From the IMG/VR virus record IMGVR_UViG_3300014205_000172, positions 64,001 to 128,000 of that record: DNA of 64,000 nt. The stretch is one strand, 5' to 3'. The notes beneath the pieces are model-generated. The model was not told the DNA's origin. It searched no databases and saw only the letters and a program-made list of their open reading frames with translations. Both the position numbers and the translations under genes were made by a program. Shown in pieces: positions 19,224 to 44,961 of the stretch. Within the stretch, counting starts at the first letter, position 1; every line of letters starts with the position of its first letter. The DNA comes from a virus (lineage: Duplodnaviria > Caudoviricetes).

Positions 19224-20228
19224 ATGACAACTGGTAACCTGATCCAAGCTCAAACCCGCAGCCTGACGTTCTACGCCGCTGGCGGTACCGCGGTCAACCT
19301 GTTGCGCGCCCACCGCTCGGATACGCCGAAGCACACTGATGCAATGGCTGATGAGAAGTACTGCTTCATCGACACCAGTATCGCTAACCTGCGTGACGTC
19401 ATCGAAGCCGATACTTTCGTTCTGGAAGGCACTGATGGTTCTGGTTCCGACCGTCCACGTAACGCCAAGGCTGTAATGGAAGCCATGCCGGCTATCCTGA
19501 ACCAATTCAAACCAGGCGATACCAACATCGTGATCTTCTCCGCCGCCGGCGGTACTGGTAGTGTGGCCGGTCCAATCATTCTGGAAGAACTGCTGAAGTC
19601 CAAGAAGAAAGTGTTTGCCATCGTCATCGGCACTCATGGTTCTCTCAAGGCTACCGCCAACACCATCGCTACCCTCACCGGCCTGGAAATGGCAGTGAAC
19701 CGCGTTGGGCGCTCCGTCGTCATGGCGTATCGTGAAAACGACCCTACCAAAAACAACGCCGGCAACAACGTTGTGCCGATGATGATCATGGAAGCCCTGT
19801 CCCTTCTCTGCTCCGGCAAGAACAACCAGCTGGACGGCGCCGACATTGGCAACATGATCGACTACCACACCGTTACTCACCACAAGCCTTCGCTGTCGAT
19901 GCTGGATGTATACGTCAACGAAGAGCAGCTGGTGAAAGAAAGCACCAATCCGATCGTACACATCGCACTGTTGCGTAACGAAGAAGCCATCACCCCGGCT
20001 ATCAATCCAGCCTATGGCAAGTCCGGCTATCTGCCAATGGAAGCCGCAGAACGCTACAAGGAGTCTTTCCACTTCGTAGTCAGCAATTCGCGTCTGAAGG
20101 GCGTGTTGTCTAACCTTCTGAAACGTCGTGAAGAACTGGAATCCGAACAGCGCGTAGTTGAGCGTCAAACCAGTCTTGTCGGTGATGGCGATGTCAAAGT
20201 CGATCAAGGCACCGGCCTGGTGTTCTAA
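19224..20228 (+). CDS. phuZ: PhuZ phage tubulin (spindle protein)
   Basis: Tubulin/FtsZ motifs: AGGTAVN, IDTS, GSG, signature AGGTGS, T7-like NNQLDGAD. Acidic/hydrophobic C-terminal tail DVKVDQGTGLVF. Confidence 0.92.
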   Translation: MTTGNLIQAQTRSLTFYAAGGTAVNLLRAHRSDTPKHTDAMADEKYCFIDTSIANLRDVIEADTFVLEGTDGSGSDRPRNAKAVMEAMPAILNQFKPGDTNIVIFSAAGGTGSVAGPIILEELLKSKKKVFAIVIGTHGSLKATANTIATLTGLEMAVNRVGRSVVMAYRENDPTKNNAGNNVVPMMIMEALSLLCSGKNNQLDGADIGNMIDYHTVTHHKPSLSMLDVYVNEEQLVKESTNPIVHIALLRNEEAITPAINPAYGKSGYLPMEAAERYKESFHFVVSNSRLKGVLSNLLKRREELESEQRVVERQTSLVGDGDVKVDQGTGLVF

Positions 20229-20245
20229 GCAACACAACCGTTAAT

Positions 20246-20269
20246 GCGAGGCGGGGAAACCCGCCTCGT
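20246..20269 (+). terminator. Hairpin downstream of phuZ
   Basis: GCGAGGCGGG-GAAA-CCCGCCTCGT followed by TTATG. Confidence 0.65.
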
Positions 20270-20303
20270 TTATGCTGTCTAACTATCAATAGAGGAATCT
20301 ATA

Positions 20304-20552
20304 ATGTCAACCTTGTTTTTCCGCTGCGAACGTTGTAATACACGGGACCACATGAAGGCATGCCCTCCATGCTCCGGTGGGCACCTTATTTGTTATCGCT
20401 GTCAGTTCAATAGCTGGCATGACCAGTTCCCAGAAGAACAATACGACAGCTCGTTTCATGAGGTTGTCAACCCCACTCCTGACTCGACCGTAAATACGTT
20501 TACGTCAATGGGTGGTGGCGGTCCCGCGGTTCCATGGGACTATGACAATTGA
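20304..20552 (+). CDS. Small Cys-rich putative Zn-finger protein
   Basis: CERC, CPPC and CYRC motifs; GAGGA SD. Confidence 0.55.
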   Translation: MSTLFFRCERCNTRDHMKACPPCSGGHLICYRCQFNSWHDQFPEEQYDSSFHEVVNPTPDSTVNTFTSMGGGGPAVPWDYDN

Positions 20553-20720
20553 ACCTAATGACCGGAGAGCTTAAATGCTCTCTAAGGTCGTTGACTTTCT
20601 TTTTGGTACATGGGTAAGGGTCTTGATCCGTATAGCGCTGATAGGTCGTCTGTAGCGCCTTTAATTGTATCTTTCCACAGAATCAGCAGATAATGTGGTC
20701 ATCGGAGAGTGAGTACCTCT

Positions 20721-21101
20721 ATGAAAGCTGTATTGATTGATGTAAACCCAGTGCTTGAAAGGCTGAGCAAACGTGAAGGTGTTGGCTTCAATGCACCCGT
20801 AATGGAAAGCTGGGTAGCCAGGACCTATGGTCGCCGATGGGACGTGCAGTGTATCAGCACTCGACTGCTCCATGACTTCGGTAAGTCAAAAGGTGGTGCT
20901 TTTGAACAACTGTCGTTTGCTAAGTCCATGGATGGTCTTGGCTACGATCTGATCGGTACGCTGCCGGCGCCGGGCGAGTTTAAAATGCCGCTCAATGGAG
21001 CAAAGAGCCCAACCTTCTCAGTTCATCTGTCGGATGATGGATTCTTGGTGATCGGAGATCCAAATGAAGTTAACCGCTACCGGCGACACCCAGCTGATTG
21101 A
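20721..21101 (+). CDS. Small-protein array member 1
   Basis: N-terminal strand AVLIDV, C-terminal hairpin FSVHLSDDGFLVIG. Alternative GTG start at 20709. Confidence 0.6.
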   Translation: MKAVLIDVNPVLERLSKREGVGFNAPVMESWVARTYGRRWDVQCISTRLLHDFGKSKGGAFEQLSFAKSMDGLGYDLIGTLPAPGEFKMPLNGAKSPTFSVHLSDDGFLVIGDPNEVNRYRRHPAD

Positions 21102-21507
21102 TTTCAGCGAGATAGTCCGCTGGACCGTCAAGACCATTAGTCGCAACATGCCCGGAAGGTGTATAGACGAGGATAAGGTTGAGAAGTGTGTTGGGTCAAT
21201 TCTTGACAACACCTTGACAATGAACATGAAATGGACAAAGGTTCATCTACAACCGCCAGAAGAGCATTATCTGGCAATGATGGATATCCCAGACTATCCA
21301 GGTGGGTGGCTTTTTATCCAAGACATCGTCGATCACATTACGGGACTTCTTGAAAACATTATAGACTTACCGACGTGGCGCATTGTGTCCATGAGGATAA
21401 TGGGATCATTTGCTCGTATTGAGTTAGATGAAGATTTTCGTGTAAAAGATTGGATGGAACATCATGCTAAGGAATATGGATTACGTGACGAGGTTAGAAG
21501 GTGGTAA
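21064..21507 (+). CDS. Small-protein array member 2
   Basis: TQLIDF ... WRIVSMRIMGSFARIEL; overlaps both neighbours. Confidence 0.65.
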   Translation: MKLTATGDTQLIDFSEIVRWTVKTISRNMPGRCIDEDKVEKCVGSILDNTLTMNMKWTKVHLQPPEEHYLAMMDIPDYPGGWLFIQDIVDHITGLLENIIDLPTWRIVSMRIMGSFARIELDEDFRVKDWMEHHAKEYGLRDEVRRW

Positions 21508-22009
21508 CCAGTTCGTTACGCTGGATGTAGAATCCCAGGTCAATGAACTGACAGCCCTGCTGGAAGACCGCTACGATGATTGCTTTAAGCCTAGGCAGAA
21601 TGCTTACAAGCTGGTCAAGTCCCTTGTTCATCACATCACCAACCAGTGCACAGATTCTTTGTTCACCATCTGTAACCGTTATTCCAAGTCAACGCATGAG
21701 TATAACGCCCTGCTGTCTGCTGTAGTCCGCTATGATCACGAATTCAGACAGTCTTTAAATGAACTAGCGGGCGCCGATAACATCATTGGCCAGGTGAGGT
21801 TTTCAGAAGAAACAGAATTCATGGTTGTTCAAATATTTACATTGGATAATCGCTATGGCCAAGAAAGATTTGACAAATACATCGACTCTCTCAAAGCCGA
21901 TGGACAGCCAGTTTCAAGAGACGTTGAACGACTCCTCGAAGAATGGCGGTCCATTGACACGGACTTTCATTTACGACATCAAGGAATTGATGGTAGACGA
22001 GCTTTCTGA
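21476..22009 (+). CDS. Small-protein array member 3
   Basis: FVTLDV ... GQVRFSEETEFMVVQI; ATG 21476 with AAGGA SD. Confidence 0.65.
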   Translation: MDYVTRLEGGNQFVTLDVESQVNELTALLEDRYDDCFKPRQNAYKLVKSLVHHITNQCTDSLFTICNRYSKSTHEYNALLSAVVRYDHEFRQSLNELAGADNIIGQVRFSEETEFMVVQIFTLDNRYGQERFDKYIDSLKADGQPVSRDVERLLEEWRSIDTDFHLRHQGIDGRRAF

Positions 22010-22292
22010 TCAGGTCTTAATTGCACAAGACGCTTTAATCAAATCGTCACTTACCTATCTGTTGTTTGATGACGCTACGGAGTGGACCAGGTTAGGTGAG
22101 AAGTTCTCGACCAACCCTGCTGATGATGTCCCGCTAGGGTTCTACATGGATACCTGGTGGATGGATCACGCTGAGGCAATGAATAGCCTCTTCGCCGATC
22201 TGATAGCCATCCGGCCATTCCGTTGGGTCAGTGTCGTGGTGACAGACGATTTCGCTAAGATCACGGTGTATCCGACTGAGGATCGTTCATGA
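21900..22292 (+). CDS. Small-protein array member 4
   Basis: TFIYDI ... WVSVVVTDDFAKITV. Start uncertain (ATG 21900 or TTG 21954). Confidence 0.6.
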   Translation: MDSQFQETLNDSSKNGGPLTRTFIYDIKELMVDELSDQVLIAQDALIKSSLTYLLFDDATEWTRLGEKFSTNPADDVPLGFYMDTWWMDHAEAMNSLFADLIAIRPFRWVSVVVTDDFAKITVYPTEDRS

Positions 22293-22630
22293 CTGTAAGG
22301 ACCTTCTTAATTGATCTGGCCGACGCTCAGCTCCCAATAGGGTTCGGCTTCCCAGATCTGGGGGTCGACAATACGGTGTTGTTTAATGCGATGGTCAAAG
22401 CAGCTATTTGGGATGAAGATATCATTTACGATATGCGGGCCTGGTTTAATCAGTGCGGGTATTACTATCAAGGCGATAGTCTGATTGACCAGTATCATGG
22501 CCTAAGGACATTGTTACGAGATGTGATGAAACACCAAGACAGCCCCATCCCTAGTTTCTATGGCCGTCTATTGTCTACCGAGCTACTCGACCACAGATTT
22601 GCAGTTATCAATATCCAGGAGCTGACGTAA
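22289..22630 (+). CDS. Small-protein array member 5
   Basis: TFLIDL ... LLSTELLDHRFAVINI; ATGA coupling. Confidence 0.65.
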   Translation: MTVRTFLIDLADAQLPIGFGFPDLGVDNTVLFNAMVKAAIWDEDIIYDMRAWFNQCGYYYQGDSLIDQYHGLRTLLRDVMKHQDSPIPSFYGRLLSTELLDHRFAVINIQELT

Positions 22631-23022
22631 TGACACAGTCAGTCATCATTGAAATCAGAAGCGACATAGCCGAGTCTATCGACCGACTCGGTGATTACAT
22701 CCCCGAAGGCGACCGCAATCACTTTGTTTCTAGCGCTATGGGTATCGTTGTGGCAAACATCTTGCACGATGATAACAATGAAGCAGCACTTGATGCAATG
22801 GACCGCCTTGTTACAAACGCAGGTCTTTCCAAACCTAATGAGGCGTCAAACCTTTTAGGTGAAATGCTGGTGCTGGGCAATGTCTTTAAAGAGACATACA
22901 GGCATCATGATGAAACGTTTAAAGCCCTGGAGAAATTACTCCCCAATGATCTTAGGGTGGGTCTTGATGAGATATTTCATGTCGAGATCTCCTCAGGTGG
23001 AGATTTCTTGAGGATTCGCTGA
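22630..23022 (+). CDS. Small-protein array member 6
   Basis: SVIIEI ... IFHVEISSGGDFLRIR; TAATG coupling. Confidence 0.65.
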   Translation: MTQSVIIEIRSDIAESIDRLGDYIPEGDRNHFVSSAMGIVVANILHDDNNEAALDAMDRLVTNAGLSKPNEASNLLGEMLVLGNVFKETYRHHDETFKALEKLLPNDLRVGLDEIFHVEISSGGDFLRIR

Positions 23023-23414
23023 TGCCCTTTTTCATTATCAACCTAGACAAGGAGGCGATCAGCGACCTGCAAGAGGTCGCTGATCGCCTTATGCACTTAG
23101 ATGAGTATTGTGGTGAAGACCGATCGGTCGCTATGTCTGATCTGGTTGATGCATTACTACACTACTGGCTGATTGCCGACTTTGATAGACTGGATCTGAT
23201 GCTCGATGATCTCAAACAAGACCGACCCTTATTCAGGGATGGTGAAATCATCGAAGCCTTCTATCGGCTGGCTAACCCGCAGCGGTCAGGCTACCGGGAC
23301 TTAACTTCTAGCTCCATAGATGTGCAACGTCAGTTGTTAGAGATTGATGAAATCATTACCTACGATGTGAAGGTAGATACTTTCTTTAACACGATTGGCT
23401 TCGGGATATATTAA
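23022..23414 (+). CDS. Small-protein array member 7
   Basis: FFIINL ... YDVKVDTFFNTIGFGI; TGATG coupling. Confidence 0.65.
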   Translation: MPFFIINLDKEAISDLQEVADRLMHLDEYCGEDRSVAMSDLVDALLHYWLIADFDRLDLMLDDLKQDRPLFRDGEIIEAFYRLANPQRSGYRDLTSSSIDVQRQLLEIDEIITYDVKVDTFFNTIGFGIY

Positions 23415-23424
23415 AGAGGTACCC

Positions 23425-23739
23425 ATGCAGTCAAACCGATTTATCTTCGATACACCTAAGGGAGGTTCCATTAACCTTCCTATGTTACAAAAGCTCATTA
23501 CGTTTTGGGCGACCGAGATCAACGACCAACACCAGTTCTTAAATGATGTACAGGAACAGTTCTTACGCCGGGCGTATCGCGCCAGTGGCGAAGACATTGA
23601 AAAATACACCGATATCGTTATGGAAATCTTCGGTTACAGCGGGATCATGACGGAGCTGATTAAAGAAAATCAGATCTTGAATGAGATCACCTGTAACGTC
23701 GATAACGATTTTGGTGAAGTGATTCTGGAGTGGTTATGA
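23425..23739 (+). CDS. Small-protein array member 8
   Basis: RFIFDT ... ITCNVDNDFGEVILEW; ATG 23425 with GAGGT SD. Confidence 0.65.
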   Translation: MQSNRFIFDTPKGGSINLPMLQKLITFWATEINDQHQFLNDVQEQFLRRAYRASGEDIEKYTDIVMEIFGYSGIMTELIKENQILNEITCNVDNDFGEVILEWL

Positions 23740-24098
23740 AAGCGCTCGTAAGGGTAGAGAAAGATACAGCGTTCCTAGTCAATGATTCACGCCTAAATGC
23801 ATTCAGCGAAGCTGATATTAAAACGTATCTATGGCTTTTGAAAGATGTGGCTACTGACGTCACTGAACGTATTCCTATTTCATTACTTGTACCAGTCTGG
23901 CCCCCGCATGAGATGCTGTTAAAAGAATTTAGCGATTCAGCACCTGTCCGCACTCTGTATAGTGTGTTGGAAGATGTTCTTTCTAACGCGGGTTATTCAT
24001 TGGGTGTGCTTACCACACTTGAGGTCGAGAAACATGAACCGACTGAACTCACAGTCTTTAAGGCCCAGACTCGATTCAGAGTCTACACGCTGCACTGA
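23736..24098 (+). CDS. Small-protein array member 9
   Basis: ATGA coupling at 23736-39; ALVRVE ... ELTVFKAQTRFRVYTL. Weaker fit to the pattern. Confidence 0.6.
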   Translation: MKALVRVEKDTAFLVNDSRLNAFSEADIKTYLWLLKDVATDVTERIPISLLVPVWPPHEMLLKEFSDSAPVRTLYSVLEDVLSNAGYSLGVLTTLEVEKHEPTELTVFKAQTRFRVYTLH

Positions 24099-24513
24099 AA
24101 CGTATCTGTTTGATTTCACAGACGAAGTTGGGAAGTTTGTAGATAACTCCGACTGTTCGGTAGAGGACCTGGGGTACAAGGTTGAATCAATCATCACTTT
24201 CTTCCTAAATGGTTCTTCTGATATTGAGGCAGTTGTCGATGTATTCTGGAAGAACATGTACGCGGGCACTCCAAAGGACGCGCTGATCTTAGCGAGCAAT
24301 GCTGTAGGGCAGCTGTATCCGGGCATGTTGACTCAAATCAAATCACAGGGTCTGACACACCAGTGCATTATTGACATGAGTGTTAAGTACACCGAAGATA
24401 CCGGCCGTGGAATGATTGAATGCCTGGTCTTGGTAAAAGTAAATGGTCGGGGAGTGGGGAATGGATTATCAGCGAACGGTGGGTTATTGCCCAGGCTTGG
24501 CGGCCAAGATTGA
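24034..24513 (+). CDS. Small-protein array member 10
   Basis: TYLFDF ... IIDMSVKY..IECLVLVKV; ATG 24034 with GAGGT SD. Confidence 0.6.
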   Translation: MNRLNSQSLRPRLDSESTRCTETYLFDFTDEVGKFVDNSDCSVEDLGYKVESIITFFLNGSSDIEAVVDVFWKNMYAGTPKDALILASNAVGQLYPGMLTQIKSQGLTHQCIIDMSVKYTEDTGRGMIECLVLVKVNGRGVGNGLSANGGLLPRLGGQD

Positions 24514-24880
24514 AGAGCTGGTAGCCGAAAGGCTCACCTACGAATACTTCGATGATCCGATCAGCGATGCTCGGTTCGAATTGCAACTGATGCATGACCG
24601 CCGGCTTTATCGTCAGGAACTGTTGCGGGCATTGGGTAGTGTTCTGACACCAAGCGACATGCAAGATGCGGTAGAAGACATTTGCGACTTCGTTTCAGAT
24701 GAAACACTTCAAGCATTGCTAATGATGTACAGGCCATTTGTAATTCGGGTTAGTGATGATGATTTTTACGTGGCTGATTATTTAGAGGTGAATAATACAG
24801 GTAAGTCTGTATTCTTTAAACTCGGGACGCCAGAACATGAAGCTCGATTCAACAACCCTGAATGCTACGCTAAGCTTTGA
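24461..24880 (+). CDS. Small-protein array member 11
   Basis: Acidic helical core, C-terminal YLEVNNTGKSVFFKLG. Immediately upstream of the gp49-like gene. Confidence 0.6.
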   Translation: MDYQRTVGYCPGLAAKIEELVAERLTYEYFDDPISDARFELQLMHDRRLYRQELLRALGSVLTPSDMQDAVEDICDFVSDETLQALLMMYRPFVIRVSDDDFYVADYLEVNNTGKSVFFKLGTPEHEARFNNPECYAKL

Positions 24881-25229
24881 AACATACGCCGGCGTCAAGT
24901 ACAATCACATGAAGTTCATTGGGATGGTTGACGCCGTGACCATGATGGCATTGGGTCAGGACGCAGTTGGTCTGCATTTACAAAACAAACCTTACCTGCC
25001 AGACCCTAAGCCAGAAGCCTACACTGACTATAGTTACGCTATATTCGTCGGGTCTGAAAAGCAACGGGTCTATCTGGGGGTACCTTGGGTACGCGAAGAT
25101 TCGATCGTCAACAACGGTCAACCGAACTACATGATGACCATCATTGCCCCAACACCAGCGCAGCTCGACACACTGCGCTCGATGGCAGTGGCATCAGGTA
25201 TCGAAAACTTTACACTCAAAGCTATTTAA
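24837..25229 (+). CDS. Conserved Chimalliviridae protein (phiKZ gp49-like)
   Basis: 'H..NKPYLP..P....Y.Y....YLGVPWVRE' pattern; immediately upstream of the DNA polymerase. Confidence 0.6.
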   Translation: MKLDSTTLNATLSFETYAGVKYNHMKFIGMVDAVTMMALGQDAVGLHLQNKPYLPDPKPEAYTDYSYAIFVGSEKQRVYLGVPWVREDSIVNNGQPNYMMTIIAPTPAQLDTLRSMAVASGIENFTLKAI

Positions 25230-25235
25230 TTCCGA

Positions 25236-25285
25236 CATAAGCCAGCTCCTTAGGGGGTTGGCGTTATGCCGCCATTTCTTTTTTT
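25236..25285 (+). terminator. Intrinsic terminator
   Basis: CATAAGCCAGCTCC-TTAG-GGGGTTGGCGTTATG followed by a T-tract. Confidence 0.65.
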
Positions 25286-25334: not shown

Positions 25335-27464
25335 ATGTCAACCAGTCAGAATCCGTTCATTCGTGATCACGCCGATTACAAACGTGACATCGACATCAAG
25401 CCAGCCGTAATCGACCAAATTTCAAAGTACATCAGCCTGCGTCTAAAAATCAGCCACAAGCAAGCAACCGAATGGATGTTGGAGAAACTTAAAGACCCGC
25501 AATGGAGAATTAAGGACCCAACTCTGGAACGTTTGCTGCGTAAAGGCCCAGGCTGGCGTATCGAGGATGAGACTACGTTCTTGTCCTACATTGAAGAGAT
25601 CATCGACAATAACTGGATCTTGTCGCCCGCACTGGTCGCGTACAAGCAAGCAGAAGATGAACTCTCTCCAATTGCTGAATGGCAAGAAGATAACATCGCT
25701 GCGCGTAAGAAGTCTAAGACTAACATGTTTGTGCTTAAACAAGCAGGTCAGTTGCTTAAGTCCGCTCTTGCCGACTATGACCAAAACGCCCGGAAGATTC
25801 GAATCAACGCCGTTTCTGGACAGCATGGTTCAGAAGGCAACCCTCTTTATCAAGCTACTGGTCACTACAGCCTCACCGCACTCTGCCGAGCTGCAGCAGG
25901 GTATGGTAACGGTACCGTAGAGAGGTTCCTGACGGGGAGTAAACACTACCACACGCCAGAGATAGCAAAAGCGAATCTGGTAGCGATCTTGACGATGGAA
26001 GACAAAGATCGCTTTAAAGAAGCTATGGACATGTACGAGTTAGTCTATCCGTCTGTGGATGACGTGCTGGCAATGGTTGAGCGTTCGACTAGCCTGTACT
26101 GGGAGTCCCCAGAAGAGTCCGCCATCATTCGTGACTGCATTACCGGCATGACCGATCTGGAACGTGCAATCGTTACCTATTCGGGTGACATGTTCCACTT
26201 GGCTAAGTACAACCCTGACATCATTCGTGAGTTCATGGGTGAGATGATCATTGATGATATCTCCACAATGCCTGAAGTAAATACCGACGCTGAGCTCAAA
26301 ACAATGAACTCAACAGACGTGGCGTACATCAATGCCTTGTGCGCTGACATCATGATCGGCTCTGACCACAAACGGGTTAAGGTCGATGATCCTGCTGGTT
26401 GGCAAGTGATTGGTAAAACAGCACGACGCTTTAAGGACGTGATGAGCCGGTTCCGCCCACTCATCTCCACCTTCTTTGTGCCACGTCACTTACCACCCAC
26501 TGTAGCGTCTCTGAAGGGCATTCAGCGCCGTGCATGTCTGGCGGCCGATACCGACTCCTCTATCTTTACCTGTGAGTCTTGGGTGAAGTGGTATTCGGGT
26601 GATCTGGTGCGTGGGCGTACTCAGGACCGTATCTGGTATCTGACCACCTACATGGCGTGTCAGTGTATCGCTCACTCGCTGGCTATGTTGTCAGCTAACG
26701 TGGGTGTGGAAGCGAAGAACCTCTTCCGCCTTGCGATGAAGAACGAATACGCATTCCCTGTATTCGCTCTGACTAACTTGGCTAAGCATTACTTCTCACT
26801 GATCTCGATGCGTGAGGGTAACGTTTACGAGAAGATGGCGCTTGAGATCAAAGGGGTAGAACTGCGTGGATCGACCATGCCTAAAGAAACCCTGGATGCA
26901 ATGAGCGACTTAATGGAAGAAATCCTCAATGCCGTTAACGAAGGTCGTAAGCTTAACGCTAAGGCTATGCTGACCGCTATTGCCGAACGTGAGATTGAAA
27001 CCATTCGGTCTATCAAGCGCGGTGAGTATAAGTACCTCAAGTCAGCCCAGATCAAACCCAATAGTGACAAGATCGTTCACTTTCAACTGTGGCAAGAAGT
27101 ATTTGCCCCTAAATACGGTGACTCCGTACAGCCACCATTCCCAGTGGTGAAGGTAACAACTGAGCTGACTAACAAGACCTTGACTAAGGAATGGTTGGAC
27201 AGCATTGAAGACCGAGAACTGGCTAATCGGATGATTGCATGGTTTAGCCGAACAGGTCGTGACAAACTACCCACCATGTACTTACCCACTCAGATTGTGC
27301 GTAACAGTGGACTACCTGTGGAGATTCAGGAAGCTGCTAACGTACGCAAGTTGGCCTACCAGATCAATAGTGGTTTCTACCGCCTCTTGGAGTCTACTGG
27401 CCTTGCTATCGTTGACCGTAACCATCATCGCCTTGTTCACGACTTCTTGAGGATGACTGCATGA
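25335..27464 (+). CDS. Split family-B DNA polymerase, polymerase-domain subunit (phiKZ gp50-like)
   Basis: Motif B-like Q.ARKIRINAVSG, motif C AADTDS, then KHY and IKGVE. Confidence 0.88.
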   Translation: MSTSQNPFIRDHADYKRDIDIKPAVIDQISKYISLRLKISHKQATEWMLEKLKDPQWRIKDPTLERLLRKGPGWRIEDETTFLSYIEEIIDNNWILSPALVAYKQAEDELSPIAEWQEDNIAARKKSKTNMFVLKQAGQLLKSALADYDQNARKIRINAVSGQHGSEGNPLYQATGHYSLTALCRAAAGYGNGTVERFLTGSKHYHTPEIAKANLVAILTMEDKDRFKEAMDMYELVYPSVDDVLAMVERSTSLYWESPEESAIIRDCITGMTDLERAIVTYSGDMFHLAKYNPDIIREFMGEMIIDDISTMPEVNTDAELKTMNSTDVAYINALCADIMIGSDHKRVKVDDPAGWQVIGKTARRFKDVMSRFRPLISTFFVPRHLPPTVASLKGIQRRACLAADTDSSIFTCESWVKWYSGDLVRGRTQDRIWYLTTYMACQCIAHSLAMLSANVGVEAKNLFRLAMKNEYAFPVFALTNLAKHYFSLISMREGNVYEKMALEIKGVELRGSTMPKETLDAMSDLMEEILNAVNEGRKLNAKAMLTAIAEREIETIRSIKRGEYKYLKSAQIKPNSDKIVHFQLWQEVFAPKYGDSVQPPFPVVKVTTELTNKTLTKEWLDSIEDRELANRMIAWFSRTGRDKLPTMYLPTQIVRNSGLPVEIQEAANVRKLAYQINSGFYRLLESTGLAIVDRNHHRLVHDFLRMTA

Positions 27465-40355: not shown

Positions 40356-40385
40356 TACCCGATGACCTACGCCTGGAGTTAATTG

Positions 40386-41966
40386 ATGGAGTTCAAAATT
40401 GCGACTTTTACGGTCAGGAGTTTCTCGATCGTACAAGCAAGCCACGGGGATGAAGTAGAGCTTGTCTTTAACACCGCCGGATACACCTCAACTAAACCTG
40501 GGGCAATCAAGCGCGATGATGGAAACGAGATGGGTACTAAGATTGAACTCTTTGAAGAGATCAATGCCCTGATTGCCACACTGCCACCCGCTTCTCAAGA
40601 TGCGCTGTACGGTGAGTATTCTCGCCTGGATAGCGTGCTGACTAGCTTCCACGTCATCGGCGCTTCTGGTCTGTCGGCCATGAAGCAATTACGAGAAGAT
40701 TTATCGGGGATCATTAAAAGCATTTACGAGCTTGTGTCATTTGCAGCTTTGCGTGAATACATCGTCAATAGTCCAAACATTCGACTGCCCATCGAACTGG
40801 CCGACGATTACATCACCACTGATAAAGTAACACCGCTGTATAAGGAACGAACGTATCTGCGTTCAGAGTACATCGACCTGGATGCGTTTGCGCTGGGCCT
40901 GCGGCTGATGATTCCTATCTGGGGCGGGTATTTGCCGATTGCTGAAACAGAGCACGGTAAGATGAAAGAGTACGATGCCTTCAAGTTGCTGTATGGTTCG
41001 GCAATGATGAAGACACCTGTGTTCGATCGACTTGAACGTTACCTGGCTGCCAACCTGGATGTCAGCAAATACGAACTGTCCGTGGTATCGAAGTTCCTTT
41101 CGGCCGATGGCGTTCCTGGGTTCTTGGCATCGTTTGCCTTGATCCGTAAAGTCAGTGTGGCACCTCTGTCGGCAGTGTCTGACAAAGACCACTTGATGAA
41201 GATCATTTACAACTACGTCATCGGTGATAAGAACCGAGTGCCGGCAGCGTTCGCCAGTAACATTCGCGATAAGAAACCAGAAGACTCATCGTCTGAAGGT
41301 AACGAAAGCGTTTGGGGTATCTTTAAGATGAAGACCAAAATCTCCACAGGGGATTTGGCAATCATCGAAGAGTACATGGAAAAGTATCAGCGCGCTGCGA
41401 AGAAGATTGCGCCAACACTCTCGGATGAGCGTATCGAGATGTGTGTACAAAATGCATTGACGCTCCATGACTTTGATCCGACCTATGGTCAGGAATGGTT
41501 AGTCATGCAAGTGTGTTCCACAGTTATTGTAGGTACTGCTATCGAGCTGATGGACCGGATACCTGGTCTGATTGCGGCCGGTGTTGTGCAAGCCGTACTG
41601 TGGGAGTGGAATCTGCCACAATTGGCAATTCTGACAACGGCTCGTATTGCTAAGCTTAAAGAAGGAGAAATGATTCAACCTATGCGGCGATTGCCCATCG
41701 CAGCAGATATCTTGGAACAATTTAATGTGATCTATCCGTACTTGGCTCCAGAGCCTCGCCGCGGTGATCCGATCCAGTCGACCAACGTCGGTGTCATCAA
41801 CGTTGAGAAGCATGTCCCACACTTCTATCGTCACGACTGGGTACCACAATGCCCTGTTGAACTTGCAAAGAGCTACTACCGGTCTGATAAGACCCGTCGT
41901 ATTGAAGTCACCGGCGACCTAAACAGTCAGCTGGGTGAAATGCTCATCAAGATCAATAACTTTTAA
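40386..41966 (+). CDS. Non-virion RNAP promoter-specificity subunit (phiKZ gp68-like)
   Basis: About 526 aa, helical; 'TYLRSEYIDL..LRLMIPIWG.Y' pattern; canonical position between gp67 and gp69. Confidence 0.72.
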   Translation: MEFKIATFTVRSFSIVQASHGDEVELVFNTAGYTSTKPGAIKRDDGNEMGTKIELFEEINALIATLPPASQDALYGEYSRLDSVLTSFHVIGASGLSAMKQLREDLSGIIKSIYELVSFAALREYIVNSPNIRLPIELADDYITTDKVTPLYKERTYLRSEYIDLDAFALGLRLMIPIWGGYLPIAETEHGKMKEYDAFKLLYGSAMMKTPVFDRLERYLAANLDVSKYELSVVSKFLSADGVPGFLASFALIRKVSVAPLSAVSDKDHLMKIIYNYVIGDKNRVPAAFASNIRDKKPEDSSSEGNESVWGIFKMKTKISTGDLAIIEEYMEKYQRAAKKIAPTLSDERIEMCVQNALTLHDFDPTYGQEWLVMQVCSTVIVGTAIELMDRIPGLIAAGVVQAVLWEWNLPQLAILTTARIAKLKEGEMIQPMRRLPIAADILEQFNVIYPYLAPEPRRGDPIQSTNVGVINVEKHVPHFYRHDWVPQCPVELAKSYYRSDKTRRIEVTGDLNSQLGEMLIKINNF

Positions 41967-41991
41967 ATCCGCTAAGCCCTGAGGGATAATC

Positions 41992-43647
41992 ATGCGCGTT
42001 CTTAAGCTAAACTTTGTGGAGGCTCCGCCGTCCTCTACCCAGTTCATCCGCACCTTCGACTTCGACAAGAAGAACAGTCGAATCGATGATCTTGCGCGGC
42101 TGACTGAAGATGGGACGAACATCATGCCAGAACGTTTGGCAAAGGTAGCATCGTCTCTGCTTTCGCCGAATACCACCAACCGCGCCAAGATCGTTTCCCA
42201 GATCGACGGCGGCTGGGATCAGAAGCGCATCATGTTCTCCATGGTGGTTGAGACATCCAGCCGTCCAAACCACCAAGAGTACGAATACATCGTGGGCCAC
42301 ACAGACTACGATGGATTCTCTCTGATCGGTATGAAAGAAGTCAAGCTCGATCTACGGATGAAACTGTACTTCGACCAGATCACGCACATCAACCTGTCTG
42401 GCGGCATTCGTCGTAGTTCCGAAGTCTGGACGCCATCCATTAAGTCAAGCGACCTGATCCTGAACCGCGATACGCTTCGCGGCTTCGGTCATGACGATCT
42501 GGCATCGCGCGGCACTGACCGTGCGCTGTCCAAGCGACCAACAGATCTGTTGCGTCGAGAAGGGGCATCCCTGAGTTACAATCAGGATAACTTCGCCTTC
42601 GATGATAACGATAAGCGCCGGCAGCCTCAGTCCAACACCAATAACACAGTGGGTACCTTTACTCAGCAGCTGAAGTTGTCCAGCCGGGATAATAACAGTG
42701 CGACATCCTTCCTGCACCGAACTCTCGATGGCTACGTCTCCGCATCGACCGGCGCTGGACTCGAGCCATCTTCATCGCCTTACGGCCTGGGTGATGAACG
42801 TTCGAGCAAGCTGGGTAACTTGAAACTGGCTTATGGCCGTGTTGACGAAAACGATCCGGCTGCTGACCGTTACCTGGAAGAGCTCAAGGAGTCTACGCGT
42901 ATCCTGAACTCTGGCTACATCACGTATGGCGAACTGATGGAGATGAATCCAGAGTTCGTTAAAAATGAGCAAGAAACTTTTGCTCGGGCAGATGTGCGTC
43001 GTAGCTACCGCCACAGCGACACCAAGCAATGGCAAGGCGATGATCACGAAACGATTGCAGCGCTCACGCTCGCCAACTCCCTGCCGGGATTGATGATCAA
43101 GAACATGTACTCGAAGCTGGATAAGCTGACGATTAACTCGTACGGTCACTCCAAACTGTCCCGTATCACCGGCTGCGTCCCATCACCGTACATCGATGGT
43201 CTGGATATCGAAGCTACATGGCCTAACTTTGAACACCAAGTGTCCGAAGTCTTGATTCATGAAGTGTCTCGCGGTATCTTCAACTTCGAGGCAAAAATTG
43301 ACGCAAACGTCGATGGTTATGTCGACATCTGGATTCGCATCGATGGCGGTCCTGAATCGTTCCACAGCTTCCCGGCGTATTGCGCTGCGTTGATGTCGCC
43401 AACTCTGGACACTAACGTTGGTTCGTTGAACTCGATGAGTACCAACCTCACCGATATCTCCAACGATCTCGCCACTCGGCGCATGGGTCACTCCCGCATC
43501 TCAATCGAAGATCCATTGCGTAACAGTAGCGGTGGGCTTCAATTGGGCATTGGTGGGATCGGTCGCCGCGATGCTCCAAGCTCCCGTACCCTTGACACCG
43601 CACTCAGTTCAAGTTCGCTGGATCTTCCGGCCAAAAAGAACTGGTAA
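41992..43647 (+). CDS. picA: PicA/Imp1 nuclear protein-import factor (phiKZ gp69-like)
   Basis: 551 aa; 'I.GGW...RIMFSMVV....YIVGHTD..G', 'RPTD'; follows the gp68-like gene. Confidence 0.7.
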   Translation: MRVLKLNFVEAPPSSTQFIRTFDFDKKNSRIDDLARLTEDGTNIMPERLAKVASSLLSPNTTNRAKIVSQIDGGWDQKRIMFSMVVETSSRPNHQEYEYIVGHTDYDGFSLIGMKEVKLDLRMKLYFDQITHINLSGGIRRSSEVWTPSIKSSDLILNRDTLRGFGHDDLASRGTDRALSKRPTDLLRREGASLSYNQDNFAFDDNDKRRQPQSNTNNTVGTFTQQLKLSSRDNNSATSFLHRTLDGYVSASTGAGLEPSSSPYGLGDERSSKLGNLKLAYGRVDENDPAADRYLEELKESTRILNSGYITYGELMEMNPEFVKNEQETFARADVRRSYRHSDTKQWQGDDHETIAALTLANSLPGLMIKNMYSKLDKLTINSYGHSKLSRITGCVPSPYIDGLDIEATWPNFEHQVSEVLIHEVSRGIFNFEAKIDANVDGYVDIWIRIDGGPESFHSFPAYCAALMSPTLDTNVGSLNSMSTNLTDISNDLATRRMGHSRISIEDPLRNSSGGLQLGIGGIGRRDAPSSRTLDTALSSSSLDLPAKKNW

Positions 43648-43674
43648 CACATTTCTTAAATGAGGTACCATTGA

Positions 43675-44961
43675 ATGTCAACGAAACTCGACAAGCTGAT
43701 TGATTTCTATTCGAAGCTTCTGCTTGATGTCGGGGTGTTTGACAAAGACGGTCAGGGTCTGCTGTTTTACAATCAGGGTGATACTGCTCACCCTGTTTCC
43801 CTGAGCGGCACTCGTCTTTGCCTCCCAACCCGCGAACTGGTCCGCGACGGCGATTGGACTGCCCGTACGGCATTCCACCCTCTGTCCGAACAGATCAACC
43901 AGGGTCCGTCCCCTGTGCTCAACGCGTTCAAAGCTTACATCATCGAACGCATCAAACCCCTGTACAAACTGATCGCCGTAGAGCTCGCTGAGCTAACTGC
44001 CGACAGTTCGCGCCACAAAGCGCTGACTACCAAAGCTTCGAAGTTCATGAAGAGCCTGGTAGGTTTCGACGATACCACTACCAAGACTCTGGAAAAGATC
44101 CTCAAGCGCACCAGTTCCGACATTCCGGAAAAGCGCCTGGTCAGTATTTTCCTCCAGGGTAGTCAGGGCGGCGGTATTTTACGCAGCTGTAAAGTATCAT
44201 TTCCAGTAATGGATGATGCTGAAAACGAAGACACTACCATGTTCTTCGAAGTGGCAATGCCGCGTAAAACAAAGGACAAGGCACTGATCGTATCTCTGCT
44301 GAACTACGTCCTCGGCGAATCTGGCATGTTCGATGGCGACGTAAAGAAAGGCGATGCGCCTTATTTCGAAAGCCTGCTGATCAGCTTCCACAAGATCGCC
44401 GAGCATCTGAACCGCTTGATCGATCTACATGGTGCCGCTTGTCCTGTACTCAAGGACTTCCGGTTCCATCTGGAATGGGCGGACGAACTCGCTACGTTTG
44501 GTGAGTTCTGTGAGAAATACGGCGTGGCTGTTCCAGCCCTGCCTGGTAACGTTGGTATCGATCCAGAGCCAGATGATGAAGAAGAAGAACCGTCCAGCAA
44601 GTCGGTATTTGAAGCAGGTGCCGATAAAGTTGGGGCAATTGACCTCCCGTTCAGCCGCAAAGGTGAAGACCGTAGCAGCCTGGGTAGTAGTGTTAATCGC
44701 AGTGGTGATGCCTTTACTCGCACTCGCGAGCAAGATGATCGTGATAACGATCGCGGCCGACCTGCTGCTACCACCATGAGTGTTGATGAAATCCTGCGTA
44801 GCGGTCGTGACCGTGGTCGCGGTGACTTCGATCGTCGTGATGATCGTGACCGTGGCCGTGATCCATTTCAACGTCAGTCTCATGAACGTAGCGGTATTCA
44901 GCTGGGTGGCGGTAACGGCGGTAGTGATCGTGGTGGTCGTGGCGGCGGCCGCGGCTGGTAA
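43675..44961 (+). CDS. Conserved protein (phiKZ gp70-like) with RD/RGG-rich disordered tail
   Basis: 'LPTRE..AFHPLSEQI..G.SPVL', 'PALPGN.G'; C-terminal DRGR/RGG repeats. Confidence 0.65.
   Translation: MSTKLDKLIDFYSKLLLDVGVFDKDGQGLLFYNQGDTAHPVSLSGTRLCLPTRELVRDGDWTARTAFHPLSEQINQGPSPVLNAFKAYIIERIKPLYKLIAVELAELTADSSRHKALTTKASKFMKSLVGFDDTTTKTLEKILKRTSSDIPEKRLVSIFLQGSQGGGILRSCKVSFPVMDDAENEDTTMFFEVAMPRKTKDKALIVSLLNYVLGESGMFDGDVKKGDAPYFESLLISFHKIAEHLNRLIDLHGAACPVLKDFRFHLEWADELATFGEFCEKYGVAVPALPGNVGIDPEPDDEEEEPSSKSVFEAGADKVGAIDLPFSRKGEDRSSLGSSVNRSGDAFTRTREQDDRDNDRGRPAATTMSVDEILRSGRDRGRGDFDRRDDRDRGRDPFQRQSHERSGIQLGGGNGGSDRGGRGGGRGW

Follow-up and report, generated by a model that had tools for sequence, protein, structure and literature searches.

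The 64,000-nucleotide (nt) stretch of viral DNA analyzed here (positions 64,001 to 128,000 of IMG/VR record IMGVR_UViG_3300014205_000172, Duplodnaviria, Caudoviricetes; hereafter the window) carries, at 20721-24880, an array of 11 consecutive open reading frames (ORFs) on the + strand, O1 to O11, located between phuZ and the genes of a gp49-like protein and of a divergent family-B DNA polymerase. Structure prediction gives two of the encoded proteins, O4 and O6, the same fold, and this predicted fold resembles that of array proteins of other chimalliviruses, including homologues of Imp2, a cargo-specific factor of import into the phage nucleus. Tentatively, most members of the array are read here as old, diverged copies of one chimallivirus-specific domain, which would provide, by analogy with Imp2, a repertoire of cargo specificities for import. 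The parts of this reading carry different weight: a shared-fold family comprising the majority of the members is probable, and an import role of the array proteins is possible but open to considerable doubt. The fold of the other nine members, their common descent and the import role are what we infer from the evidence set out below, which bears on the selectivity of the protein shell around the phage nucleus.

Two array proteins with one predicted fold

The AlphaFold2 model of O4, computed from 12 sequences, reached at best a predicted local distance difference test (pLDDT) score of 83.7 and a predicted template modelling (TM) score (pTM) of 0.76, all five models lying between 81 and 84 in pLDDT, and consists of a disordered segment (residues 1-19), a first strand (beta1, 20-26), five helices and a C-terminal hairpin (107-115/118-125). 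In the best model of O6 (seven sequences; pLDDT 78.3, pTM 0.74) beta1 is at residues 5-8 and is followed by five helices and a hairpin at 118-120/126-129. The same order of elements, beta1, about five helices and a beta2-beta3 hairpin, is seen in both proteins, between which sequence similarity is not detectable. A preliminary description of this DNA had proposed, from the letters alone, that most members share an architecture made of a short N-terminal strand, an acidic helical core and a C-terminal hairpin; in the two models the strands do fall on the residues it named (VIIE and VEI...FLRI in O6, TFIYD and VVVT..FAKITV in O4), and for the other nine members the evidence is that of the motifs and of a crude, Chou-Fasman-style propensity profile, a weak illustration whose agreement with the AlphaFold2 secondary structure is 55-64%.

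When the models were compared by Foldseek with BFVD, uncharacterised chimallivirus proteins made up nearly all matches, chimallivirus proteins being 22 of the 25 named rows among the top 50 for O6 and 21 of 24 for O4, and 14 targets, among them Imp2 homologues from SL2, PhiPA3 and Psa21, were common to the two top-50 lists. The alignments run over the full length; TM scores by query are about 0.4-0.6, and the highest probabilities reach 1.0. Three of the source phages were verified against taxonomy, and most of the array entries (Ea35-70, Eowyn, SL2) were identified by length or position, not by sequence; by length, a 127-amino-acid (aa) match from Ea35-70 corresponds to Ea357_212, and two Eowyn matches of 116 and 123 aa correspond to array genes 10 and 11. 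A 178-aa protein of phage SL2, judged by length and position to be gp312, the homologue of phiKZ gp47 (Imp2), matches O6 with a TM score by query of 0.56 and a probability of 0.93, and O4 with 0.53 and 0.96. Two further Imp2 homologues stand in the O4 top 50, PhiPA3 gp044 (10.1101/2024.03.27.586873) with a probability of 0.60 and a 183-aa protein of Psa21, a gp47 homologue by phmmer, with a probability of 0.38; the E-values of the Imp2 homologues are weak (0.04-0.17). BFVD rows of 276-358 aa were also obtained, of which a portion aligns with the single-domain models.

No fold matching the O4 or O6 model was found in the PDB, and a shape search of the ESM Atlas with the O4 model gave TM scores of 0.40 or less; the predicted fold is therefore not a common generic one. 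An idea drawn from the N-terminal motif, that of a PIN domain, was dropped, with no support in Pfam for O1-O10 and no PIN domain among the PDB matches of O4 and O6, whose models are helical with a three-stranded sheet, unlike a Rossmann-like sandwich.

Sequence signals across the array

The N- and C-terminal motifs quoted in the preliminary description are all present as written, the strand of O4 and O10 coming at residues 20-28, after an N-terminal extension of low conservation (modelled as disordered in O4). When the N-terminal strand is defined strictly, as three hydrophobic residues, D, E or N, and one more hydrophobic residue within the first 32 residues, it is found in seven of the 11 members, versus 31 of the 270 other genes of the genome, and near-variants are present in three more members. 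The array proteins of eight other chimalliviruses carry the motif in 29 of 78 cases, versus a background of 12% (p=1e-8). Collinearity is seen in the best local alignments that HHalign gives between array families (Spearman 0.45, permutation p=1e-4) and not in those involving two control families; finally, hidden Markov models (HMMs) of the families, scored against a background of 118 small genes, put other members in the top decile in 25% of cases versus 10% expected (p=9e-6, calculated over pairs that are not independent). All four are weaker, aggregate signals, and they agree with a common architecture.

A deep profile of O6 ranks O3 and O7 next after O6 itself among 279 genes of the genome; against 110 array proteins of known phages its best foreign match, Eowyn_5, was not significant (E=0.012). 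No match at E<0.01 was obtained in Pfam (O1-O10) or PHROGs (O1-O11), and none in Pfam even at E<0.1. Four small genes of the same genome outside the window (206578-206850, 202910-203194, 216201-216533 and 151044-151424 of G000 C1) recur among the best non-self matches of several array-family HMMs, and may be either further members of the fold or an artefact of composition.

Imp2, Imp4 and the arrays of other chimalliviruses

In phiKZ, Imp1 is the core import factor, and single cargos depend in addition on the accessory factors Imp2, Imp4, Imp5 and Imp7, which reportedly occur only in close Pseudomonas phages. The product of orf47 is Imp2, needed for the import of Nlp1 and itself imported via Imp1, and that of orf48 is Imp4, specifically required for the import of the host TopA (10.1101/2024.03.27.586873), and the preliminary description had correctly named gp47 and gp48 as cargo-specific import factors. 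Mutations in the two factors hit different single cargos and have no common phenotype (10.1101/2024.03.27.586873), and both genes are without disruptive transposon insertions in phiKZ.

The likeness of the window's array to Imp2 lies in its position between phuZ and the gp49-like and DNA polymerase genes, in the size class of its products and in the predicted fold of O4 and O6. The differences are the lack of any sequence or profile similarity (against all 11 families, an Imp2 alignment reached HHalign probabilities of at most 0.6%) and the presence in the window of 11 such genes versus one named factor, with no assignable orthologue. By tblastn, phiKZ gp40-49 gave in the whole genome only a match of gp40, located elsewhere. 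The proposed relation to gp47 and gp48 stands as a likeness of predicted fold to the gp47 family, and not as sequence homology to either protein. As for Imp4 (gp48, 127 aa), its gene directly precedes the gp49-like gene as the last of the small genes, which is the position of O11, its size is similar, and a hydrophobic strand, a turn and a strand can likewise be read in its C-terminal sequence; it has no sequence or profile similarity to the members, and the link is a positional one. The only structural candidate for a gp48 counterpart is a 126-aa protein of Psa21, its counterpart by position, in the O4 BFVD list, a weak match (probability 0.41).

Comparison with the same locus in other Chimalliviridae, which the preliminary description had proposed, did disclose equivalent arrays. 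Between PhuZ and the gp49-like and polymerase genes, 7-13 co-oriented and mostly overlapping small genes are present in eight phages, namely phiKZ (gp43-48), Eowyn (gp074-084), Ea35-70 (Ea357_208-215), SPLA10, pEa_SNUABM_37, Proteus phage 10, Psa21 and pPa_SNUABM_DT01; Xoo-sp14 has an equivalent run of small genes before its gp49-like and polymerase genes, and PhuZ was not located in the stretch that was fetched. These arrays share with that of the window the order of the flanks (a DUF7484-like gene, PhuZ, the array, the SH3DP/gp49-like gene, the divergent DNA polymerase and chimallin), a size of 95-200 aa for most genes, and the enrichment of the N-terminal motif, and their products are structural neighbours of the models in BFVD, but across genera the gp49-like protein alone can be recognised from its sequence.

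A further difference is that some arrays begin with a protein of 357-502 aa, for which the window has no counterpart. Such proteins are found in Proteus phage 10, pEa_SNUABM_37, Ea35-70 and phiKZ, where it is gp43 (L007 2823-4331, L008 3038-4366, L027 1884-3173 and L001 12342-13415), and they may be multi-domain or fused members. Three of their translations were examined, and the N-termini of those of Proteus phage 10, pEa_SNUABM_37 and phiKZ gp43 show a similar short hydrophobic strand; of these three, only the Proteus phage 10 protein and gp43 have the strict motif, with a strand ending in D. JADA, the activator of Avs5, was considered as a link and rejected, being the orthologue of phiKZ gp124 and unrelated to the array locus.

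Conservation and selection

All 11 genes are collinear in six close metagenomic relatives (L002, L003, L012, L013, L015 and L017), at 39-99% identity, and nine of them were found by profile in four distant arrays (L020, L022, L023 and L024), in which O5 is absent and the gene at the position of O11 is unrecognisable by profile. A scan of metagenomes with the DNA polymerase alignment gave one extra locus only. The nonsynonymous divergence (dN) goes from 0.08 for O1 to 0.58 for O11, versus 0.09 for the DNA polymerase, and is for most members 3-6 times that of the polymerase. Its ratio to the synonymous divergence (dN/dS), calculated only where dS is unsaturated, is 0.06-0.41. On this comparative evidence O1-O11 are real protein-coding genes under purifying selection, since they have collinear orthologues and dN/dS values in this range; the start codons chosen for them are also conserved in the relatives.

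A possible import repertoire and its alternatives

According to the reading that is tentatively favoured, most of the 11 members would descend from one ancestral gene for a domain having one N-terminal beta-strand that ends in D, E or N, about five helices and a C-terminal hairpin pairing with the first strand. The scaffold would consist of the conserved three-stranded sheet and the core, and the client surface of the variable helices. Each member would bind one or a few client proteins via a fast-evolving helical surface, and member and client would enter the phage nucleus by an Imp1/PicA-dependent route, by analogy with Imp2. The hypothesised partner, a homologue of Imp1/PicA, is encoded in the window, outside the array. 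A complex prediction for the Imp1 homologue with O6 and O4 gave a score of 0.00, which is no answer and speaks neither for nor against binding.

Several results weigh against the reading of the array as one family of import adaptors. Among the members nothing significant was found by BLASTP, phmmer or an all-vs-all HHalign comparison (with alignments of 7, then of 7-14 sequences), the last of which the preliminary description had suggested as a check; the best HHalign pair, O1-O11, reached a probability of 30% over 20 residues of the C-terminal hairpin, other pairs 11% or less, and acidity and composition may inflate weak cross-family scores. Its proposal of a diverged paralogue family agrees with the predicted fold and the common BFVD targets of O4 and O6, and reaches significance by no sequence method. 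The models cover two of the 11 members; only one of the five models of O6 is confident, the other four having pLDDT values of 43-60; the BFVD E-values are just 1e-3 to 0.2, at TM scores of about 0.4-0.6; and a layout of strand, helices and hairpin could arise repeatedly. Two members, O9, which is atypical, and O11, unrecognisable in the distant arrays, fit less well, as had been noticed from the sequence. In addition, neither tblastn nor HHalign links any member to phiKZ gp44-48 by sequence or profile, Imp2 and Imp4 are conserved in sequence only in Pseudomonas phiKZ-like phages (10.1101/2024.03.27.586873), and the phage itself is uncultured.

The alternative that survives best, although unlikely, is that the array encodes host-takeover or counter-defence proteins built on a common scaffold, each binding a different cytoplasmic host target and grouped in one operon for timing, with no part in import. 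The rate of evolution of most members (3-6 times that of the DNA polymerase), the turnover of membership between lineages (O5 gained, O11 unrecognisable), the acidity of ten of the 11 members and the absence of detectable sequence homology to the arrays of other genera, a typical arms-race pattern, are all in its favour. It fits less well with dN/dS values well below 1 and with the position of the array, which in all chimalliviruses examined is kept beside core genes of replication and of the nucleus; moreover, import is the function of Imp2 and Imp4, the only array members whose role is known, and their genes carry no disruptive transposon insertions.

Translational coupling brings in another explanation, an improbable one, in which the members are paralogous subunits, made in fixed ratios, of one hetero-oligomeric accessory machine of the nucleus or the replisome. 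Eleven of the 12 gene junctions overlap and the remaining one is a gap of 10 nt, gene order is strictly kept across ten arrays, and the block ends with the gp49-like gene that adjoins the DNA polymerase gene. Slow co-evolution is usual among the subunits of an obligate complex, however, while dN here is 0.08-0.58; members have been gained and lost, and in phiKZ the single cargo affected by mutation is not the same for Imp2 as for Imp4.

It is likewise improbable that the 11 genes are unrelated ORFans with no common ancestor, whose layout and motif are convergent or a by-product of small acidic alpha/beta proteins. The lack of significant similarity between members, the weak Foldseek E-values and the availability of models for two members only are in favour of this view; the 14 BFVD targets common to two models without mutual sequence similarity are against it, as are matches that are almost exclusively to chimallivirus proteins, several of them in syntenic arrays. 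The replication of the motif enrichment in eight other phages, the collinearity of the weak alignments in the array families and not in the controls, and the absence of a similar fold from the PDB and the ESM Atlas also speak against unrelated genes. Last, a role of the members as accessory factors of replication, expressed from one transcript with the gp49-like SH3DP protein and acting at the replisome inside the nucleus, is very improbable: the gp49-like gene does lie inside the same terminator-bounded block and the block always adjoins the DNA polymerase gene, but a terminator separates the two, both the polymerase and the gp49-like protein evolve far more slowly than the members, and the known phiKZ functions at the array position are in import.

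The import reading can be extended, as a speculation that we consider rather unlikely to hold in full, to all Chimalliviridae: their PhuZ-polymerase arrays would be one fast-diversifying family with the Imp2 fold, a layer of nuclear cargo selection with 8-12 adaptors per phage, each licensing one client for Imp1-dependent import. If so, Imp2 and Imp4 would be the two characterised representatives of a repertoire spanning the whole family, comparable in function to importin adaptors, and not oddities of Pseudomonas phages; cargo-specific adaptors would be a general and expandable feature of nuclear import, the array of each phage would be a short, testable list of candidate adaptors, and cargo specificity would best be sought on their fast-evolving helical surfaces. 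In the literature searched, Imp2 and Imp4 are not placed in a wider structural family and no paper describing the array family was found; relative to it, the family-level reading is new.

Organization of the probable operon

The array had been described as 11 small, consecutive ORFs, nearly all overlapping or coupled and with no obvious internal terminator, and this is what the sequence contains: the products have 104-177 aa, the gaps do not exceed 10 nt, and the stop/start junctions are exactly those given, ATGA at 22289 (O4/O5), TAATG at 22628 (O5/O6), TGATG at 23020 (O6/O7) and ATGA at 23736 (O8/O9). The remaining junctions are overlaps of 32-110 nt, save for the 10-nt gap between O7 and O8. 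Long out-of-frame overlaps are those of O3/O4 (110 nt, 21900-22009) and O9/O10 (65 nt, 24034-24098); in the former the shared stretch, which on the O3 side belongs to the C-terminal tail of variable length, encodes beta1 of O4.

O11 overlaps by 44 nt the next gene, O12 (24837-25229, + strand), which encodes a 130-aa gp49-like protein (Pfam SH3DP; phrog_3235, E=8.5e-13). The orthologues of O12 carry PF20287, and by phmmer O12 clusters with phiKZ gp49 and its counterparts in eight other phages. O12 thus belongs to the gp49-like SH3DP (PF20287) family, to which none of O1-O11 has a match and which is distinct from the family of the array members. The only convincing terminator on the + strand is an intrinsic one at 25259-25284, after O12 and before the DNA polymerase gene, and this, together with the 44-nt overlap, suggests that O12 is in the transcription unit of the array.

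On the 5′ side, a hairpin followed by a T-run (20564-20604, + strand) is found 3′ of a small zinc-ribbon ORF; in an alignment of seven relatives its stem shows compensatory changes between lineages, and the T-run, about 13 nt past the stem, is invariant. By these features it is likely a terminator that separates the array from the upstream genes. A second stem-loop (CCACA...TGTGG, 20675-20698, + strand) has invariant columns, with C/T and G/A co-variation in L020 and L024, and adjoins the Shine-Dalgarno sequence of O1 (GGAGAG, 20704-20709); it may be a leader or a promoter-proximal element of the operon. The O1-O12 block (20721-25229) probably forms one transcription unit, as its layout, with the conserved hairpins on the 5′ side and the sole terminator after O12, would allow. 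A candidate promoter motif, TACATTAC, was rejected: three copies are present in the window versus 1.4 expected, none of them near the array.

The individual genes

The genes are all on the + strand. As had been stated, most of the products are acidic (isoelectric point, pI, of 4.1-5.3 for ten members and 7.9 for O1); genome-wide, 43% of small proteins have a pI below 5.4. O1 (20721-21101, 126 aa) is the most conserved member, with 79-95% identity in the six relatives and a dN of 0.08-0.18; it has the motif VLIDV and the hairpin motif HLSDDGFLVIG, through which it is weakly linked by HHalign (probability 9-30%) to the hairpin of O11. O2 (21064-21507, 147 aa, acidic) overlaps O1 by 38 nt, has the motif QLIDF and orthologues in ten arrays, and gives weak in-register HHalign matches to O4, O10, O6 and O8. 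O3 (21476-22009, 177 aa; alternative ATG at 21464) has the motif VTLDV and the long, length-variable C-terminal tail that overlaps O4 (21900-22292, 130 aa).

O5 (22289-22630, 113 aa, motif FLIDL), which shares the ATGA with O4, is lineage-specific: it is found in the close clade of the window and in the short contig L018, and in L020, L022, L023 and L024, where it is missing, O4 abuts O6. Its profile weakly matches the O4 orthologue in L021 (E=0.0066), and it may be a lineage-specific duplicate of O4. O6 (22630-23022, 130 aa), entered through the TAATG junction, has 25 homologous clusters by exhaustive profile search. O7 (23022-23414, 130 aa), at the TGATG junction, has the motif FIINL (IIDI in relatives) and a weak in-register HHalign match to the N-terminus of O6; a search of the ESM Atlas with O7 is uninformative, with scores that stay under 0.9 and a poor model in the Atlas itself.

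The shortest member, O8 (23425-23739, 104 aa), has the motif FIFDT and the hairpin motif CNVDNDFGEVIL. O9 (23736-24098, 120 aa), which begins at the second ATGA overlap, has the motif FLVND at residues 12-17 and, by the crude propensity profile, a C-terminal half rich in beta-formers. In O10 (24034-24513, 159 aa) the motif YLFDF at residues 24-28 lies behind a variable extension, a conserved ATG is located 21-27 codons 5′ of the motif in all relatives, and weak in-register HHalign matches join it to O4, O2 and O6. The fastest-evolving member is O11 (24461-24880, 139 aa), which overlaps O10 by 53 nt and has a hairpin motif, VIRVSDDDFYVADY, that resembles that of O1.

Genome context

The source genome, a single contig of 237 kb, encodes PhuZ, the divergent family-B DNA polymerase and a homologue of Imp1/PicA; PhuZ and the Imp1 homologue, together with chimallin in the relatives, give the array the context of a phage nucleus. 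The best identities to GenBank phages are 34% or less for PhuZ (19224-20228; phrog_4733, E=2e-75) and 40% or less for the DNA polymerase (25335-27464; phrog_2927, E=1.5e-201), which places the genome, by the sequence of these proteins, on a deep, uncultured branch of the Chimalliviridae; a megablast of the array region against GenBank phages gave no match. In the relatives the chimallin gene is just downstream of the corresponding region.

A G+C-rich hairpin 3′ of phuZ (20246-20275, + strand), read from the sequence, is likely the terminator of the phuZ transcript, and was missed by the consensus terminator scan because its T-run is short. It is followed, between phuZ and the array, by a Cys-rich ORF of 82 aa (20304-20552, + strand; CxxC...CxxC), which is kept in all relatives, has no Pfam or PHROG match and looks like a widely kept zinc-ribbon protein; it belongs to the context and is outside the array family. 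Small ORFs with CxxC pairs are found at the equivalent position in pPa_SNUABM_DT01 (DT01_5) and Xoo-sp14 (Xoo14_2) and form a mutual phmmer cluster, which no search linked to the 82-aa ORF of the window. At 4190-5300 of L023, a DUF7484-like gene is directly followed by the zinc-ribbon ORF and the array with no PhuZ between them, and this lineage appears to have lost or relocated PhuZ.

The Imp1/PicA homologue (41992-43647, + strand) was found by tblastn with phiKZ gp69 (23% identity over 504 aa, E=1e-14), and phiKZ gp59 (Imp3) and gp67 (Imp6) gave no tblastn match at E<1e-3 in the genome. The homologue is part of a group of three collinear genes (40383-44961) similar to phiKZ gp68, gp69 (Imp1/PicA) and gp70, at 20-30% identity, and size-matched genes occupy the positions expected for gp59 and gp67.

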